Below are positions 7,680 to 25,441 of a stretch of 64,000 nt of DNA, piece after piece. Source of the DNA: a virus (lineage: Duplodnaviria > Caudoviricetes); the IMG/VR virus record IMGVR_UViG_3300037400_002732, positions 1-64,000 of that record; one strand, given 5' to 3'. The stretch's first letter is position 1, and every line of letters begins with the position of its first letter. A model generated the notes under the pieces. That model did not search any database. It was not told the DNA's origin and saw only the letters and a program-made list of their open reading frames with translations. Position numbers and translations under genes: made by a program.

Positions 7680-8186
7680 TTATTTCATCATGGACTGTAT
7701 CGTCGCCTTGTCCAGAAGCCGCTGGTTGGAACTGCCTCGGAATCGCAAGGAAAGGTCTCTCTGAGCTTGAATGAACGGCCCATCGACAAGTACATCAACT
7801 TGGTTCAAAATACGGTCTGTAACGCCTTCTACCCACTTTCTCTGGCAGAAGAGCAAGTCACGGTCGAGTACATAGCCAGTGTACATCCAAAGCGTCTTGG
7901 TAGGGCACTTTTTCTTGAACTTCTCGATGAAGTCAACCAAGCAGATCTGATTCTCTTCTTCGAACGGATCGCCACCAAGAATGCTTAGACCAGCTATGTA
8001 GGATTTTTTACACGATTCGATAATTTCATTCTCTTCGATAGGAGTAAATACGGAACCGTAGTTAAAATCCCACGTTTCCTCGTTGAAACAGCCACGACAA
8101 TGGTTACGGCAACCAGACACAAACAGAGATACCCGGCAGCCTTCACCATCAACAATGCTCATTGGATCTATTTTTCCGTAATACAT
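7680..8186 (-). CDS. nrdG: Anaerobic ribonucleotide reductase activating protein (radical SAM)
   Basis: DGEGCRVSLFVSGCRNHCRGCFN (CxxxCxxC), GGDPF, DVLVDGPF, FRGSSNQR. Confidence 0.95.
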   Translation of the reverse strand: MYYGKIDPMSIVDGEGCRVSLFVSGCRNHCRGCFNEETWDFNYGSVFTPIEENEIIESCKKSYIAGLSILGGDPFEEENQICLVDFIEKFKKKCPTKTLWMYTGYVLDRDLLFCQRKWVEGVTDRILNQVDVLVDGPFIQAQRDLSLRFRGSSNQRLLDKATIQSMMK

Positions 8187-9259
8187 ATTCCATGATTCCG
8201 TTTATGATTTCTGAATGAGGCAATATAGTCTTTGCCGTACGTTTTGGCAACATAATTTTCATATTCAGAACAATCAACAATGATTTTAACTTGATTCTGA
8301 ATCATGCACTGATGTTTTGCCTCATATAATCCGTCTAATCGGTGATTGTATGGGTTAATCATCTGCTTATTTGAGTCTTTGTCCTTGAAGAACTGTCGTC
8401 CCTTCAACTCAATAAGTTGACCATCGACACAGAAATCAGGATTATACCAATGAGTCTTACCGTCATATTCATACGTGAACCGAATGTCTGGCTGGTATTC
8501 AAAGGTAATCTTATGATCGGTTAGCCAGATAAGATACGCCACCTCATAAGAGCTATCAAAGTTCATGCCATTGTATGTGTATTTGTGATGTGCTTTGTCA
8601 CTGACTTGTTTACACTGCATAGGAGTAGATACGCCATAACGCTGTAAAGAAGTTTCTTGAGCTTGCTCACGATTGTTATACGTATGGGTTCCATACCGTT
8701 GAATCTTAGTCTCGTTAGACTTTTGGCCAATGTATTCATAATACGCTTCCACGGAACCATACTTGTCAATCAATGTTTCAAAGCACTTATCGCGATTATT
8801 GTATGTAGCAGAACCATGTCGGCGTAATCTAGTTTCAGAGCACTTTTGACGAAAGTCAACCATGTGCGACGGATGTTCAACACCATAGCGAGCCTTCATA
8901 GTCGCCTCACGAGCGTCCTTAGTAAGCTTACACATTTCAGATGCGCTACCATACTTCTCCGCAATAGCTTGATTGCATTTCGTTTGGCGTACTTCTAAAT
9001 AGTTATCACCATACCGTTCCTTCATGGTCTTATCATAATTCATTGCATAAGATTCGGTTTTATGTGCCTTACTTAACGCGCATTTATGGCACACAAAAGG
9101 ATATGAAATTTTATCCAAATTCTTTACTGACAATGAACCGCATTCAGAGCATACAAAGCTAAATTTCGCTCGTCTATATGCCGTACGTGGTTTCAACTCG
9201 TTAGCTTGGTTTAAATCATCAGCTGACGAAAGATGTGCGCATATATTTGTTTTATCCAT
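8168..9259 (-). CDS. Free-standing putative homing endonuclease: Zn-ribbon, (K/R)YG repeats and C-terminal PD-(D/E)XK nuclease
   Basis: CSEC..CHKC; about 7 repeats like TMKARYGVEHP; FDSSYE..YNPDF..LIELKG; start placed at MDKTN just after the structured leader. Confidence 0.75.
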   Translation of the reverse strand: MDKTNICAHLSSADDLNQANELKPRTAYRRAKFSFVCSECGSLSVKNLDKISYPFVCHKCALSKAHKTESYAMNYDKTMKERYGDNYLEVRQTKCNQAIAEKYGSASEMCKLTKDAREATMKARYGVEHPSHMVDFRQKCSETRLRRHGSATYNNRDKCFETLIDKYGSVEAYYEYIGQKSNETKIQRYGTHTYNNREQAQETSLQRYGVSTPMQCKQVSDKAHHKYTYNGMNFDSSYEVAYLIWLTDHKITFEYQPDIRFTYEYDGKTHWYNPDFCVDGQLIELKGRQFFKDKDSNKQMINPYNHRLDGLYEAKHQCMIQNQVKIIVDCSEYENYVAKTYGKDYIASFRNHKRNHGICITEK

Positions 9260-9264
9260 AAGAA

Positions 9265-9374
9265 ATGACCCGTAGCGGACTAATTTGGCGTTCATTCCAC
9301 TACGGGCCATGTAATAAACATCACCACAGTACATTGAAGAACGCCAATTATCCAATGTTCTGCTTTAAGTTTAT
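9265..9374 (-). ncRNA. Kissing-loop 5' leader A with ATAAACT promoter
   Basis: P1 9327-9362 and P2 9265-9310; loops UUGGCGUUC / GAACGCCAA are complementary. Confidence 0.7.
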
Positions 9375-9381
9375 ATGATCG

Positions 9382-11886
9382 CTAAATATTGTGGCGATCT
9401 TTCAATTCGGCGAGCTTGCCATCGCCCCAAGCACGTAAAATTGACTTGCGTGGCGCACCAGTCAAATATCCAGTAATGCGACGTACGCGGACGAATTTAT
9501 TTTCATCAGTGCAATGGCATTTCGGACATTCATTGTCGATTATTCCGTGGAACCCACATTCCAAACAGTCGTCTGAATCCATGGTCACCGTGAAGTAACC
9601 CAGATCACCATCATACATGGTATCAATGACCGCCTTAACCGCGTCCACATTCTTACTCAAATCTCCATTCATCTTATAATAGAAGATGTGTCCAGCATTC
9701 GACAACGCATGGAATGGAGCTTCAGTCTTGATCTTGTTTTCAAGCGTCGTATCCAACGAAAAATCCATCATGTGGGAATTTGTATAATACCCCTTACCAA
9801 AGATACGATACAAGTCTACATCAGCGAGTTTCTTTTCGTTCTGGAACTTATGCTTGTCAATATTCGCGAATCGACCAGCAACCGCTTCTGCCGGAGTAGC
9901 AAAGCAAGACCAGTTCAGATGAGTTTCCTTCTGACATTCGTCACAGAAGTCGCGAATATGCTTTACAATAGACACAGCAAGGTCATGAACATCAGCATCG
10001 ACGCCGTAAGTCTTGCTAGTAAGCAATGTAATAGTTTCGGCGATACCAATGTAGCCGATACTTAGTGTAGACTGCTTCATTACTTCACCAATCTTGTCAG
10101 TAATCGCATGAGGCTTGTCGTCGGACGTCAAATACAGTCCTTGTTGCATCGTAAACGGATACTTTTCATAGGTCTTTTCAGCAATCAGCTTGAAACGGTC
10201 AATCAAGCTACCCTTCGCATCTTCGAGCATGACGTCAAGCTTTTCGAAGAACAGTTTCACACGAGCGTCTTGCGTAGATTCCTCGATATGCGCTTCAATG
10301 GCAAGACGTGGTAAATTAATCGTATGGAACGCCAAGTTGCCACGTCCAGTAGTCTGCTGGGTGCCATTAACGTTGCCAATAACACGGGTACGACAGCCCA
10401 TTGTACTAATAGTCGTATTTTCGATAAGCTTGCGCAGTTGCAGCTGTTTACCATCATAGCTGACTACTTCCCAGAAATCGGTCGGTGTCACTTGGTATTC
10501 ATATACAGTGTATTGAGTTTTGTCAATACGGTCAAGAGCTACCGTATCATTCGTTCCGCGAACCTTGAATACAATCGTTCCAGAAGCATCAATCGTCTTC
10601 ACGTTATACTTGACGTAAGGCAGATTAAACTTCGAATCTACCTTTACAAAGTTCGGATAAAATCGACGTGCAAGACAATGGATTGCGTCGATATACAAGT
10701 CAAAGTTAGGATCGGTTTCGAGCTTAGTGTAACCCTTCATAAGCTTGAAAATCAATATCGGGAAAATCGCCGTAAGTCCATCACCCATACCTTCGTACTG
10801 GGCTCTTATCAAATTCTTGCTAGCCATACGACCGCAGTTAGACGTATCGAGGCCGAAATTTAGTGACGAGAACGGAACTTGGTTACCTGATCGAGACTGT
10901 AACGAGTTAAGATTATGTACAAGAGCTTCCATCGCTTGGTGCGTATCGTCATCAGTAGTATCAATAGCTTCATCAACACAGTCTTGTGGGAACATTGCAT
11001 ACAACGAAGCCACCGGAAGATTCATTGAAACACCTCGGTCTCTTAGTAATTCGATCAAGCGTTTCTTGACTGTCTTGAAACGTCCAGTAAATTCGCTGTA
11101 CTGTGGATCGCCAGTTTTCTTAGCGTAGCTATTAAGTTCCTTGGCCAGATTCTTTAGAAATGAACGATCCACGAAAGGAGCCATTTCAAAATCGAAATTG
11201 TCGCAAGCAATGCCACCAAACTGCTGATTCGACTGCAACTGAAGAATGACGGCAGTCAACGCGGTCGCCGATTGTATTGACTGGGCCGGACGCTGAAAGC
11301 CAGTACCAGAGTCAAAGCCACTCTTTAGCAACTTTCCTACCGGAGCAAACAAACAGTTAAATGTAAGATCGTACTGGTTCAAGTCATGGATATGCATGTA
11401 ACCGTTTGTGTGTTCTTCCGCATACTTACGGTTGACAACATCCAACAAGTTAAACATCTTGTTGACTTCGCTGGCAATCTTACCATACATGCCAGCCGGA
11501 GTTCCGCCAGATTCATTGGCATTGTCTCGAAGAATGTTAGAACTCGGCAAGTCAGCTTGCTTAATCTCGCGAATAATACGCATCACTTCGGACTTGATCA
11601 TTCTGATGCGGGTACGTTCACGACGGTATTCCTCGAATGCGACAGCAGTGTCCACGTACTGGTTATCCTTCAATACCGCATAGATGGTATCTTGGATAGT
11701 TTCGACCGGAACGGTCTTCTTGCCTAGTAATTCCAAGCTTGCAATTACCTTGGCCACCAAGTCATCCAGCGTTTCATCACAATACTGCTCGTGGGATTCC
11801 TTGAACGCCGCCTCGATGGCGTCGTAAATATGTTTTGGTTCAAACTTACGCTTTCGCGTATCACGTTTCTCAACTTTAAGAATCAT
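9382..11886 (-). CDS. nrdD: Anaerobic (class III) ribonucleoside-triphosphate reductase
   Basis: N-terminal ATP cone, HIHDL, QVPFSSLNFG, MGCRT, YYTNS, CLECG..CPKC, RRITGYL glycyl-radical motif. Confidence 0.97.
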   Translation of the reverse strand: MILKVEKRDTRKRKFEPKHIYDAIEAAFKESHEQYCDETLDDLVAKVIASLELLGKKTVPVETIQDTIYAVLKDNQYVDTAVAFEEYRRERTRIRMIKSEVMRIIREIKQADLPSSNILRDNANESGGTPAGMYGKIASEVNKMFNLLDVVNRKYAEEHTNGYMHIHDLNQYDLTFNCLFAPVGKLLKSGFDSGTGFQRPAQSIQSATALTAVILQLQSNQQFGGIACDNFDFEMAPFVDRSFLKNLAKELNSYAKKTGDPQYSEFTGRFKTVKKRLIELLRDRGVSMNLPVASLYAMFPQDCVDEAIDTTDDDTHQAMEALVHNLNSLQSRSGNQVPFSSLNFGLDTSNCGRMASKNLIRAQYEGMGDGLTAIFPILIFKLMKGYTKLETDPNFDLYIDAIHCLARRFYPNFVKVDSKFNLPYVKYNVKTIDASGTIVFKVRGTNDTVALDRIDKTQYTVYEYQVTPTDFWEVVSYDGKQLQLRKLIENTTISTMGCRTRVIGNVNGTQQTTGRGNLAFHTINLPRLAIEAHIEESTQDARVKLFFEKLDVMLEDAKGSLIDRFKLIAEKTYEKYPFTMQQGLYLTSDDKPHAITDKIGEVMKQSTLSIGYIGIAETITLLTSKTYGVDADVHDLAVSIVKHIRDFCDECQKETHLNWSCFATPAEAVAGRFANIDKHKFQNEKKLADVDLYRIFGKGYYTNSHMMDFSLDTTLENKIKTEAPFHALSNAGHIFYYKMNGDLSKNVDAVKAVIDTMYDGDLGYFTVTMDSDDCLECGFHGIIDNECPKCHCTDENKFVRVRRITGYLTGAPRKSILRAWGDGKLAELKDRHNI

Positions 11887-18653: not shown

Positions 18654-18658
18654 CTAAT

Positions 18659-18763
18659 ATAAACTCATATTATATAAGTTCGTGGTGGTTCTTGTATAAT
18701 GCGTGGTAATTTTTAAATGCCAGTTGGATGCTAACCACCACTTTAAGCGTCTAACTGGCATTT
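18659..18763 (+). ncRNA. Kissing-loop 5' leader B with ATAAACT promoter
   Basis: P1 18668-18701 and P2 18715-18763; loops GUGGUGGUU / AACCACCAC are complementary. Confidence 0.7.
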
Positions 18764-18771
18764 GCTATTGT

Positions 18772-20154
18772 ATGGAACAGCAGTGCGGACGAAAGATAGG
18801 CTTACTGCCGACTAAGGCTCAGATACGGACGATGTACCGTATGTGTGCAGTCGCTCGTCACGCATATAACTGGAAGCTCGCTGTCCAGAATCAAGCCTAC
18901 GAGGAAGCCAAGAAGAACACACCAGAAGGTGAAAAGCCAAAGTGTAAGCTCGGTACTCCTATTGACTGGCATAAGGAATGGTGCATCCACAAGAAGCTCC
19001 CAGAAAACAAGTGGATGACAGAAGTATCCAAGTTCTGCGGCCAAGAGGCCCTAATCGACCTCGGTTCCGCATGGAAGCGGTTCTTCAAGGGTCTAGCCAA
19101 GCATCCACGGTTCCATAAGTACGGCGTAGACGAATCGTTCCGGTGTTCTGGCGGAGTATTCATTGGTCGTGATTTCGTTCAGTTGCCTACGCTCGGCAGA
19201 GTAAGACTAGCCGAGAAGGATTACATCAAGATACCGGACGGTGTGGTGAAGACTCCGATTGCGATGGCTACAGTATCAGTAGACCCTACTGGTCACTGGT
19301 CGATATCGTTCGCCTACCATGTCGATGTAGAACCACTTTATTCGCCCAATACCGAAATTACTTCCGATGACATCGAAGGCATCGACCTCGGTGTGAAGGA
19401 TTCTGGAATCACTTCTAGTGGAATAGTATATTCCAATCCGAAGGCATACCGACGCTATATAGCTCGTATCAAGAGATTGCAGAAGGCAATATCTAGGAAA
19501 CGCAAGAAGTCAAAGAACCGCAAGAAGGCTAGTAAGCGGTTAGCCAAGACTTGGCACAAGGTCACCTGTATCAGAGTGAACCATGCTCACCAGATGACTT
19601 CCGACCTAACTTACAAGTTGAAGCCAAAGATGATTGTGATGGAGACACTTCGACCAGGTAATATGACGAAGAACCACAATCTTGCATCCAGTATCCTAGA
19701 TGCCAATTTCGGTAGAATCAAGGAATTTCTTAAATACAAGTGCCAATGGCTTGGTATCAATCTCATCTTTGCTCCGCAGTTCTATGCAAGCAGTCGATAC
19801 TGCTCGCACTGTGGATGCTACCATAATGACAATTTAACTCTCGCTGACCGTGAATGGACATGCCCGGTATGCGGCTGTCATCATGACCGTGACGCCAATG
19901 CGGCGGTCAACCTCAAATTCTATGGTCAGTGGTTGGCTGGACTCGTCCAGACCGACGAAAATGTTGCGGCGCGATTAGCCGTAGGCGGATGTTCCGCCGA
20001 TGCTTGCCCTTCTGTATATCAGAAGGAAGGTATGACTTTTGTCAACCCCAGAGACCGGAGGTTACAGTTCTTCCTAACGGATGAATCGTGCCGGACTATG
20101 AAGCAAGAACTCAATACATATTATAAACCATACAATAGTATAAACTATGGTTAA
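18772..20154 (+). CDS. tnpB: TnpB RNA-guided RuvC nuclease (IS200/IS605 or IS607 type), no tnpA
   Basis: HTH_OrfB-like N-terminus (ARHAYNW), GIDLGVK RuvC-I, VMETL RuvC-II, CSHCG..CPVCG Zn finger, DRDANAAVNL RuvC-III. Confidence 0.92.
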   Translation: MEQQCGRKIGLLPTKAQIRTMYRMCAVARHAYNWKLAVQNQAYEEAKKNTPEGEKPKCKLGTPIDWHKEWCIHKKLPENKWMTEVSKFCGQEALIDLGSAWKRFFKGLAKHPRFHKYGVDESFRCSGGVFIGRDFVQLPTLGRVRLAEKDYIKIPDGVVKTPIAMATVSVDPTGHWSISFAYHVDVEPLYSPNTEITSDDIEGIDLGVKDSGITSSGIVYSNPKAYRRYIARIKRLQKAISRKRKKSKNRKKASKRLAKTWHKVTCIRVNHAHQMTSDLTYKLKPKMIVMETLRPGNMTKNHNLASSILDANFGRIKEFLKYKCQWLGINLIFAPQFYASSRYCSHCGCYHNDNLTLADREWTCPVCGCHHDRDANAAVNLKFYGQWLAGLVQTDENVAARLAVGGCSADACPSVYQKEGMTFVNPRDRRLQFFLTDESCRTMKQELNTYYKPYNSINYG

Positions 20155-24555: not shown

Positions 24556-25317
24556 TTACATTATTTCATTTTCAAGCAGAACTGAAGCAATTCGTTTAAT
24601 TACATTAGCCTTGTCGGCCTTATATTCGCTTGCCCATACGGAAATTACTGTGTAGCCCATTCCTCGAAGCACGTCCAAACGTTCTTTGTCATGTTCCCAG
24701 ATGTCCTTGGCGGTTATATTATGGTGAATAATATCGGTTGCTTGATATTTAGCTGGATTAGCATGCCAGAAATCGCCGTCATACTCAATAATGTACTTAC
24801 CAAAGGTGAAGTCCGGAAATATCCACTTGTCGCCATAAGGAATTGTTTTCATTGACTCAAGTTTACTCGCCGATTCGCCCAAGGATTGACGTAAGTCTTC
24901 GCCAAACTGTAATTGTTCCTTAGAAAAATTAGGCGATACATGTTGATTCCATACTATTGCGCCACTTTTCCACGTCTGCTTAAACCGTTCTGCACGAAGT
25001 TTTCGCTGTTCGGGATCTTTAAATTGCTCATGCGCGTTTTTACTCTGTAACGCTTTAAATTCATCCGAACGAGTCAGACCAGTCATGCCAGATATGACTT
25101 TAGCACGATATGAATCATCCTCCCACAATTTCTTAGAAGCATCTGCAGTAGCCAATTTAATCTTATCTACGGTTTCTTTTGAATGTTTACGACCGAAAAA
25201 CGGATTATTAGCCCCAGTTCGATCGCGGTGCGCGTTGCAATAGCCAGATTTATTTTTGTCACTTATACGGCAACCACACTTCAAGCAATGCTTATTCAAT
25301 TTATGTCCACTAGCCAT
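24556..25317 (-). CDS. Putative homing endonuclease: NUMOD3 DNA-binding motif plus Vsr/DUF559-like nuclease
   Basis: CLKCG..YCNAH; NPFFGRKHSKET (NUMOD3); FPDF..IIEYDGDFWH..D..R...GYTVISVWASE. Confidence 0.8.
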   Translation of the reverse strand: MASGHKLNKHCLKCGCRISDKNKSGYCNAHRDRTGANNPFFGRKHSKETVDKIKLATADASKKLWEDDSYRAKVISGMTGLTRSDEFKALQSKNAHEQFKDPEQRKLRAERFKQTWKSGAIVWNQHVSPNFSKEQLQFGEDLRQSLGESASKLESMKTIPYGDKWIFPDFTFGKYIIEYDGDFWHANPAKYQATDIIHHNITAKDIWEHDKERLDVLRGMGYTVISVWASEYKADKANVIKRIASVLLENEIM

Positions 25318-25323
25318 AAAAAA

Positions 25324-25425
25324 ATCCTACCGGAACTAGCCCTTCCGATAGGATACAACACGCCTAAGCGTGTTTAAACTTAACTACATATCAGCAAGGG
25401 CTAGTTGCTTTTAATAGAAGTTTAT
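25324..25425 (-). ncRNA. Kissing-loop 5' leader C with ATAAACT promoter
   Basis: P1 loop ACUAGCCCU (25397-25405); P2 25324-25354 with loop AGGGCUAGU; extra hairpin at 25357-25374. Confidence 0.65.
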
Positions 25426-25441
25426 ATGATGTCGAGTTGAC

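Follow-up and report, generated by a model that had tools for sequence, protein, structure and literature searches.

A covarying kissing-loop RNA leader ahead of an endonuclease gene between nrdD and nrdG of an uncultured giant phage

The nrdD-nrdG locus and the leader of the endonuclease gene

The stretch of DNA analysed here (the window, 64,000 nt) is the first 64 kb of a viral record of 174.8 kb. Since CheckV rates a record of this length as only about 46% complete, we regard its source as a giant phage. On the minus strand nrdD is followed by a gap of 122 nt, by an endonuclease ORF starting with the ATG at 9259, and by nrdG, the start of which is overlapped for 19 nt by the 3′ end of the endonuclease ORF:

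9382–11886, minus strand: nrdD, anaerobic ribonucleotide reductase, 834 aa (Pfam NRDD 7e-148, ATP-cone, Gly_radical), stop codon TAG at 9384-9382
8168–9259, minus strand: free-standing endonuclease ORF, 363 aa, with DUF7487 repeats (Pfam DUF7487 3.6e-14; PDDEXK_3 weak) and a C-terminal PD-(D/E)XK-like motif (PDF...ELK)
7680–8186, minus strand: nrdG, activating enzyme, 168 aa (Pfam Fer4_12 2.4e-48)

Residues D307, E316 and K318 (numbered in the 395-aa frame in A1) are invariant among the homologues of the endonuclease ORF, and because of this invariance in the DUF7487/PD-(D/E)XK-like motif its product is described here as a putative PD-(D/E)XK-type endonuclease. A PDB sequence search returned no solved relative. 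Homologues found by protein search are about 52–68% identical to the window protein, and one further copy is near-identical; among phage proteins only remote DUF7487 matches were obtained, in Lak-type megaphages. The near homologues represent 13 loci, and their contigs always carry nrdD, endonuclease and nrdG in this order. Deposited phage genomes yielded no related leader by near-identity search or by distant DNA search. NrdD itself is long (834 aa here, 848–885 aa in relatives), and its match to Pfam NRDD is divided into two stretches, a pattern that points to a clade-specific insertion in its central part.

Upstream of the endonuclease ORF lie a promoter-like box and an RNA leader, which we call leader A:

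9368–9375, minus strand: TATAAACT box, presumed late-type promoter motif, ending 5 nt before P1, invariant in 12 leaders
9327–9362, minus strand: hairpin P1, from strand reading, RNAfold and covariation at 5 of 12 pairs
9339–9347, minus strand: loop-1 kissing strand UUGGCGUUC, directly adjoining the P1 3′ arm, with UAA on its 5′ side
9311–9326, minus strand: U-rich linker from P1 to P2, from strand reading and alignment
9265–9310, minus strand: hairpin P2, about −26 kcal/mol, covariation at 8 of 15 pairs
9285–9293, minus strand: loop-2 kissing strand GAACGCCAA, from complementarity and alignment
9257–9264, minus strand: U-rich spacer UUCUU and start codon AUG, from strand reading and alignment of homologues

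A preliminary description of this DNA had proposed that the minus-strand RNA forms two hairpins with complementary loops just before the AUG, and our reading of the strand agrees in every detail. P1 is formed by CAGAACAUUGGA (9362-9351) and UUCAAUGUACUG (9338-9327), with 11 of 12 positions paired and one A-A mismatch; its loop of 12 nt is UAAUUGGCGUUC (9350-9339). P2 consists of AUGGCCCGUAGUGGA (9310-9296) and UCCGCUACGGGUCAU (9279-9265), which form 15 bp including two G-U pairs and enclose a loop of 16 nt, AUGAACGCCAAAUUAG (9295-9280). The 9-mers UUGGCGUUC and GAACGCCAA in the two loops are exact reverse complements. The AUG (9259-9257) follows P2 after 5 nt and stays outside its stem. The sole SD-like element of leader A, GGGU, lies within the P2 3′ arm and ends at −8.

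The minimum free energy (MFE) calculated by RNAfold for leader A is −44.4 kcal/mol, compared to −28.0 ± 3.4 for shuffled sequences (z −4.79; 0 of 200 shuffles as good), and the MFE structure contains both hairpins. A helix between the RNA of the promoter box and the linker also appears in the MFE of the window sequence, but was rejected because on inspection it is not conserved in L007-L011.

The window contains 8 copies of TATAAACT versus 1.5 expected, and 39 copies of ATAAACT are found in the genome record 12–45 nt before the ATG of ORFs of at least 100 aa, many of them very large. By its likeness to the T4 late promoter TATAAATA the box is probably a late-type promoter, and transcripts would start near P1, which begins 1–13 nt past the box across the leaders. 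The ordinary genes with this box (n = 39) have short leaders that fold with about −3 kcal/mol, versus −44 for leader A. The median strength of their SD sequences is −3.9 kcal/mol; the GGGU of leader A (−3.7) is ordinary in strength, but buried in the P2 3′ arm.

Conservation of the leader structure and the start of translation

The DNA upstream of the endonuclease homologues is strikingly conserved. We aligned 12 distinct leaders of this type (class A), the proteins of which are only about 52–68% identical to the window protein. The TATAAAC box and both loops are invariant in this alignment, including UUGGCGUUC in 12 of 12 leaders, and the stems vary. With the proposed structure 94.7% of the cells are paired, and 13 of the 27 stem pairs have changed on both sides. 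None of 500 shuffles reached that number, and slid controls gave 1–6. A further, model-made alignment (A3) was excluded from these counts, because it mixes antisense and spurious matches. The covariance model of the leader scores 133 bits on the sense strand versus 28 on the antisense strand, and several of the pairs are G-U, workable on the sense strand only. The structure is thus sense-strand specific. Within class A none of the nine loop-loop pairs varies, and for this reason class A alone speaks neither for nor against a kissing helix.

Conservation upstream of the ATG could also reflect an N-terminal extension of the endonuclease, with translation starting at TTG 9355 or at ATG 9310 or 9295. 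The window frame is open from 9355, and the upstream extension of some homologues by gene callers yields a shared peptide, SGMNAKL. However, upstream codons (ATG, TTG or GTG) are in frame in just 4 of 13 homologous leaders and out of frame in the other 9, the frame being lost through single-base length differences in the spacer, and most of the out-of-frame cases have in-frame stops within the leader, 21–42 nt before the main ATG. Moreover, the stem substitutions are compensatory, not synonymous, and the alignment of all homologues, and with it protein conservation, begins at the ATG that corresponds to 9259. As 9 of 13 homologues have the upstream starts in another frame, translation starts at 9259, and the upstream starts that the preliminary description considered probably unused are indeed not used. 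The region is conserved as structure, not as a protein beginning at 9355 or another upstream codon, and we give the coding reading virtually no credence; it is close to excluded. For annotation, this corrects the start codon of the endonuclease family, whose ORFs are often extended into the leader by gene callers. A short uORF from the AUG at the base of P2 was also considered as a coupling device and rejected: this AUG is buried in P2 and in frame in 4 of 13 leaders.

Leader A is confirmed as a genuine, conserved, non-coding RNA leader, and its structure is very well supported.

Loop-loop pairing in further leaders and exchange between nuclease genes

The covariance model comprises P1 and P2 and does not encode loop complementarity. 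It found more leaders with different yet complementary loops, at 18658-18777 of the window, in L011/L012 and in L055. A direct scan for complementary words flanked by stems added the leader of L056/L057 and leader C; it replaced a scan of MFE loops that found no leaders, because RNAfold inserts small spurious helices in the loops. Thus, five leader classes beyond A, two of them in the window, stand in front of TnpB genes and a NUMOD3/Vsr endonuclease:

18658–18774, plus strand: paralogous leader B, before TnpB (18772-20154); TATAAACT, P1 and P2, loops GUGGUGGUU / AACCACCAC
25317–25426, minus strand: paralogous leader C, before a NUMOD3/Vsr-type endonuclease (24556-25317); TATAAACT, short P1, an extra hairpin, P2 followed by U7, loops ACUAGCCCU / AGGGCUAGU
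L011/L012, before another TnpB: class D leader, loops GUAGGAUUU / AAAUCCUAC
L055, before TnpB: leader with loops AUCGCCAUUC / GAAUGGCGAU
L056/L057: leader with loops UGUGAGAGUC / GACUCUCACA

Leader B matches the model (CM R1) with 38 bits and an E value of 1.6e-7, and the gene downstream of it has TnpB Pfam domains.

In each of the six loop classes the cognate loops are complementary over 9–10 nt, and every non-cognate combination reaches at most 4 nt. Because the loop sequences differ between the classes and the cognate complementarity is nevertheless kept, the loop-loop helix (K) is real. The kissing loops of the preliminary description hold on both counts: the stems covary, and the loop-loop pairing is kept with other sequences in five more classes. 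L055 is one of them and compares closely with class A: the flanking loop bases are kept, three positions of the 9-mer differ, and all three are compensated in the partner loop. Shuffling of loop 2 reached the observed loop-loop run in 1–48 of 20000 trials per class (4 of 20000 for the 9-nt match of leader A).

Across the classes the loop-1 kissing strand adjoins the P1 3′ arm and has 0–4 unpaired nt (mostly 2–4) on its 5′ side; the loop-2 kissing strand starts 0–2 nt past the P2 5′ arm and usually leaves 3–5 nt on its 3′ side. From this strand geometry and the linker lengths, P1 and K would have the strand order of an H-type pseudoknot without loop 2, with P2 carried on a long third loop. In the 175-kb genome record, the model and the direct scan place kissing leaders on three nuclease genes only. 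Most matches in an exact loop-pattern scan of bacterial genomes and metagenomes are due to chance (about 8 expected by our own estimate), and only 5 of 20 loci score with the model.

A possible variant leader precedes a distant DUF7487 homologue (44% identity) on a 355-kb viral contig (L020:1368-1486, plus strand). Here a long P1 is combined with a short P2, and the P2 loop, AUGGAACUC, contains the start codon and matches the complement of the P1 loop GAGUUCCA over 8 nt. The model score of this candidate is weak (23.6 bits).

The position of the endonuclease between nrdD and nrdG, as given in the preliminary description, is the same in all near homologues, and in relatives with an empty site (NrdD 67–70% and NrdG 65–73% identical) the endonuclease is missing. 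At these sites nrdD and nrdG are adjacent, and both box and leader are absent from all of them (L081-L086). Since relatives lacking the endonuclease have neither box nor leader, the insertion brought box, leader and ORF together. Leader A is the 5′ UTR in this mobile endonuclease cassette, which is composed of these three parts and sits between nrdD and nrdG. Junctions of the two genes that lack the insertion differ among themselves: the stop codon of nrdD and the ATG of nrdG overlap in L081 and L082 (TAATG, TGATG), and L083-L086 have a canonical terminator hairpin and an SD sequence between the genes (L083-L086:1935-2000).

Leaders are not tied to one gene family. The class A leader also stands in front of TnpB in L018 and L063; its loops are the same there, P2 is nearly so, and P1 has covaried. 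Conversely, the window TnpB (leader B) and the L055 TnpB (leader A2) are 93% identical and have different leaders; the similarity between these loci begins abruptly a few bases before the AUG. The leaders are modular and are exchanged among PD-(D/E)XK, TnpB and NUMOD3/Vsr nuclease families.

Some of these TnpB loci have peculiarities of their own. The TnpB with a class A leader is intact in L063:1906-3153 (minus strand, 415 aa) and split into frames of 136 and 268 aa in L018:1483-2718 (plus strand), where it is either a frameshifted pseudogene or an assembly error. In L011:6934-8170 and L012:4046-5468 a TnpB with a class D kissing leader is located about 2 kb downstream of nrdG, so that two leader-bearing nuclease cassettes are possible within 4 kb. 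The last 32 nt of the window TnpB ORF contain two ATAAAC boxes, TATTATAAACC and TATAAACT (20122-20146, plus strand), 40 nt upstream of the ATG of the next gene (20187). These boxes resemble promoters of the downstream gene that are embedded in the selfish gene, as in the seg and mob cassettes of T4, where downstream-gene promoters lie within the selfish gene. Embedded ATAAAC boxes at the TnpB end are not common to the other TnpB loci, and flanking TATAAACT repeats were rejected as a general feature of TnpB cassettes, being present in this window only.

An element acting at the DNA level also has to be considered, either an IS200/IS605-type transposon end or an operator of the endonuclease. The ends of IS200/IS605 elements have subterminal hairpins, and TnpB genes carry leaders of the same design as leader A. 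An operator has a precedent in I-TevI, which binds to one at its own late promoter (PMC2988022). Such an element is opposed by the sense-strand specificity of both model score and G-U pairing, and by the use of the same loops with two unrelated proteins. Furthermore, the endonuclease cassette has no right end, its ORF running into nrdG, and the ORF listings around the three leaders contain no Y1 transposase gene. We consider an element of this kind extremely improbable and close to excluded.

Possible functions of the leader and related systems

On balance, we lean towards the view that leader A limits the expression of a nuclease that is made from a strong late promoter. The sense RNA folds into P1, near the presumed 5′ end, and the very stable P2 ending 5 nt before the AUG, and the 9-bp helix K ties both together; it would thereby lock P2 into one compact domain. 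P2 buries the sole SD-like element and would fill the landing zone of the ribosome. As a result the output of nuclease would be limited by occlusion of the ribosome site, possibly also by attenuation. The stability of P2 is −26 to −29 kcal/mol in most classes and −17 in leader C. Leader C and the majority of class A leaders have an SD-like element that is covered by P2. These elements, GGGU, AGGU or GAGU, have their last base at about −6 to −9 within the P2 3′ arm; they are weak, and they are absent in L018 and leader B. Were thermal opening of P2 (−26 kcal/mol) needed to expose the SD, next to no translation would be expected. Expression must then use another route, be it a factor, cleavage, or entry at the U-rich spacer that does not depend on an SD.

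Limitation of this kind is known from the homing endonuclease genes of T-even phages, where RBS-sequestering hairpins and late promoters hold expression down, as for I-TevI, I-TevII, I-TevIII, segB and Aeh1 mobE (reviewed in PMC2988022). Leader A resembles these cases in that a selfish endonuclease gene, inserted in genes of nucleotide metabolism, has a stable hairpin shortly before its start codon, and in the combination of this hairpin with a presumed late promoter of the TATAAATA type, the likely purpose being tight limitation of the nuclease. The gene behind it is likewise a putative homing endonuclease gene, a DUF7487/PD-(D/E)XK ORF that is found in 13 loci and absent from the empty sites. 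In T4 the promoter lies inside or after the 5′ arm, and late transcripts escape the hairpin. In contrast, the TATAAACT box lies upstream of both hairpins, 5 nt before P1 here and 1–13 nt before it elsewhere, so late transcripts retain the inhibitory arm and a temporal relief of the T4 type cannot apply. Further differences to the T-even leaders are the second hairpin with its covarying loop-loop helix of 9–10 bp, the start codon outside the stem, the weak SD-like element, which some classes lack, and the swapping of the leader module between unrelated nuclease families.

The classical T4 arrangement is seen elsewhere in the genome, outside the window. At G000:C1:106740-106830 (plus strand) an inverted repeat of 9 nt (GCCUCGGUU ... 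AACCGAGGC) brackets a GATAAACT box, and the GAGG that precedes the ATG of an ORF of 1558 aa is covered by the 3′ arm of the repeat. This phage would thus also use the simpler T4-type design, in which the RBS is sequestered only in read-through transcripts.

Several observations do not fit easily with leaders as expression limiters. The P2 hairpins of the TnpB leaders end 8–17 nt before the AUG, often without an SD-like element, and for this reason occlusion may not be the shared function. A second TnpB of this genome, located outside the window (G000:C1:92883-93992, minus strand, about 402 aa), has an ordinary late-type leader of 32 nt without kissing structure, which means that the device is not obligatory. 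Finally, no base of the class A loops varies, paired or unpaired, although the stems have drifted, and this hints at a constraint on these loops that goes beyond simple pairing.

The main rival of the limiter reading is attenuation: P2 and its U-rich tail would be an intrinsic terminator before the ORF, so that mainly a leader RNA of about 100 nt is made and the nuclease mRNA arises by read-through, while K together with P1 modulates how the terminator folds or makes the short RNA more stable. Each class indeed has a GC-rich P2 of 12–19 bp followed by a U-rich tail. The U fraction of the tails is 0.41–0.78 (most at least 0.5), versus 0.28 ± 0.15 in positions −10 to −1 of ordinary late genes, and the tails are alike across otherwise unrelated classes (CAUUUCUUAU, CAUUUGCUAU). 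A terminator scan accepts the tail CATTTCTTAT, and the plain terminator hairpin at the empty sites L083-L086 indicates that termination between nrdD and nrdG is tolerated. However, the loops of 9–16 nt are mostly longer than usual in efficient terminators. Leader A combines a GC-rich stem with a loop of 16 nt that is engaged in K, and the U-tract of class A is short and interrupted (4–5 U in 8; 5 in leader A). Only leader C has the canonical stem followed by U7. P1 and a covarying loop-loop helix would be superfluous for a plain terminator, and an efficient terminator would also block early read-through from nrdD to nrdG. We regard attenuation as unlikely to be the principal function; it is compatible with limitation by occlusion.

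Both principles are found together at the left end of IS200, where the control region of tnpA consists of a terminator hairpin and a hairpin in the 5′ UTR that occludes the SD, leaving the gene nearly silent. Leader A shares with this region the two successive hairpins between the left boundary of the element and the start codon, and the TnpB genes with leaders B, D and E belong to what we take to be the same IS200/IS605 superfamily. Unlike in IS200, P1 is followed here by UGGUGAUG... and not by a U-tract, the gene encodes a nuclease and not TnpA, and transcription seems to start from a late-type promoter of the phage. We know of no loop-loop pairing described for IS200.

The compact 5′ domain might instead protect the mRNA from 5′-end-dependent decay, or RNase III might cut the stacked helices, free the start region and thereby activate translation. 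RNase III cutting of loop-loop complexes and its activation of phage lambda N translation are established precedents. P1 begins 1–13 nt past the box, which would be near the start expected for a T4-type late transcript, and the helices P1 (12 bp), K (9 bp) and P2 (15 bp) approach the length of an RNase III substrate. On the other hand, stabilisation leaves unexplained why only selfish nuclease genes have the device and highly expressed structural genes have short unstructured leaders. We consider a role in stability or processing improbable.

Another reading takes the loops as an address that is recognised in trans, by a protein or by another RNA such as the terminated leader RNA or another leader copy, so that class identity matters. 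It would account for the invariance of the class A loops, unpaired bases included, in 12 diverged leaders with drifting stems, for the mutual orthogonality of the three leaders of one genome, and for the swapping of leaders between genes, with leader A before TnpB in L018 and L063 and B or A2 on TnpB genes with 93% identity. Yet the unpaired loop bases are not common to the classes, which argues against a shared site for a protein or ligand, and L055 demonstrates that the identity of the pairs can change provided that pairing is kept. Recognition of this kind appears quite improbable. Somewhat speculatively, the loop pairs may form a programmable address code, with an orthogonal leader for each cassette and a helix that is read or competed for in trans; competition could come from the leader of a co-infecting phage or from plentiful terminated leader RNA belonging to the same class. 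We consider this code rather unlikely. If it were true, each nuclease would be switched by the presence of its cognate element, and conflict among mobile elements would underlie the rapid exchange and diversification of leaders.

Loop-loop contacts next to the RBS govern access to the start in guanidine-II (mini-ykkC) and class II cobalamin riboswitches. These have in common with leader A that two hairpins, or a hairpin and an expression-platform hairpin, kiss via their loops. Their loops are short, conserved in sequence and ligand-dependent; here, 9–10 Watson-Crick pairs vary freely and the classes share no unpaired bases. A pseudoknot in the leader of T4 gene 32 nucleates binding of its own protein to an unstructured operator. 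The likeness is that of a 5′-terminal H-type pseudoknot in a phage mRNA leader, which there serves translational control; the leaders described here have no such operator, and a strong second hairpin adjoins the start codon. Comparison of leader A to Rfam 15, which includes guanidine-II, the IS605-orfB motifs and HEARO, gave only mir-1262 (22.8 bits versus a gathering score of 70), and leaders B, C, A2, E and the L063 copy gave nothing relevant at E values up to 1. In the literature available as full text, coverage of which is incomplete so that absence is no proof, we found no account of kissing loops at genes for homing endonucleases or TnpB.

Leader A has the features that define the family, namely a TATAAAC box, P1, a strong P2 near the AUG and cognate loop complementarity of 9–10 nt. 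It is a member of an apparently unpublished modular family of kissing-loop leaders on selfish nuclease genes of phages. Silencing leaders are known from T4; those described here are more elaborate, each forming a two-hairpin domain of about 100 nt with a freely reprogrammable loop-loop lock of 9–10 bp. The leader travels in a cassette that also brings its own late-type promoter box, and it is exchanged among three unrelated nuclease families in uncultured giant phages. The family constitutes a natural set of orthogonal RNA modules and, with its many independent covariation events, a clean test case for a tertiary RNA contact. It also offers a handle on the question of how phages tolerate RNA-guided TnpB nucleases and homing endonucleases.
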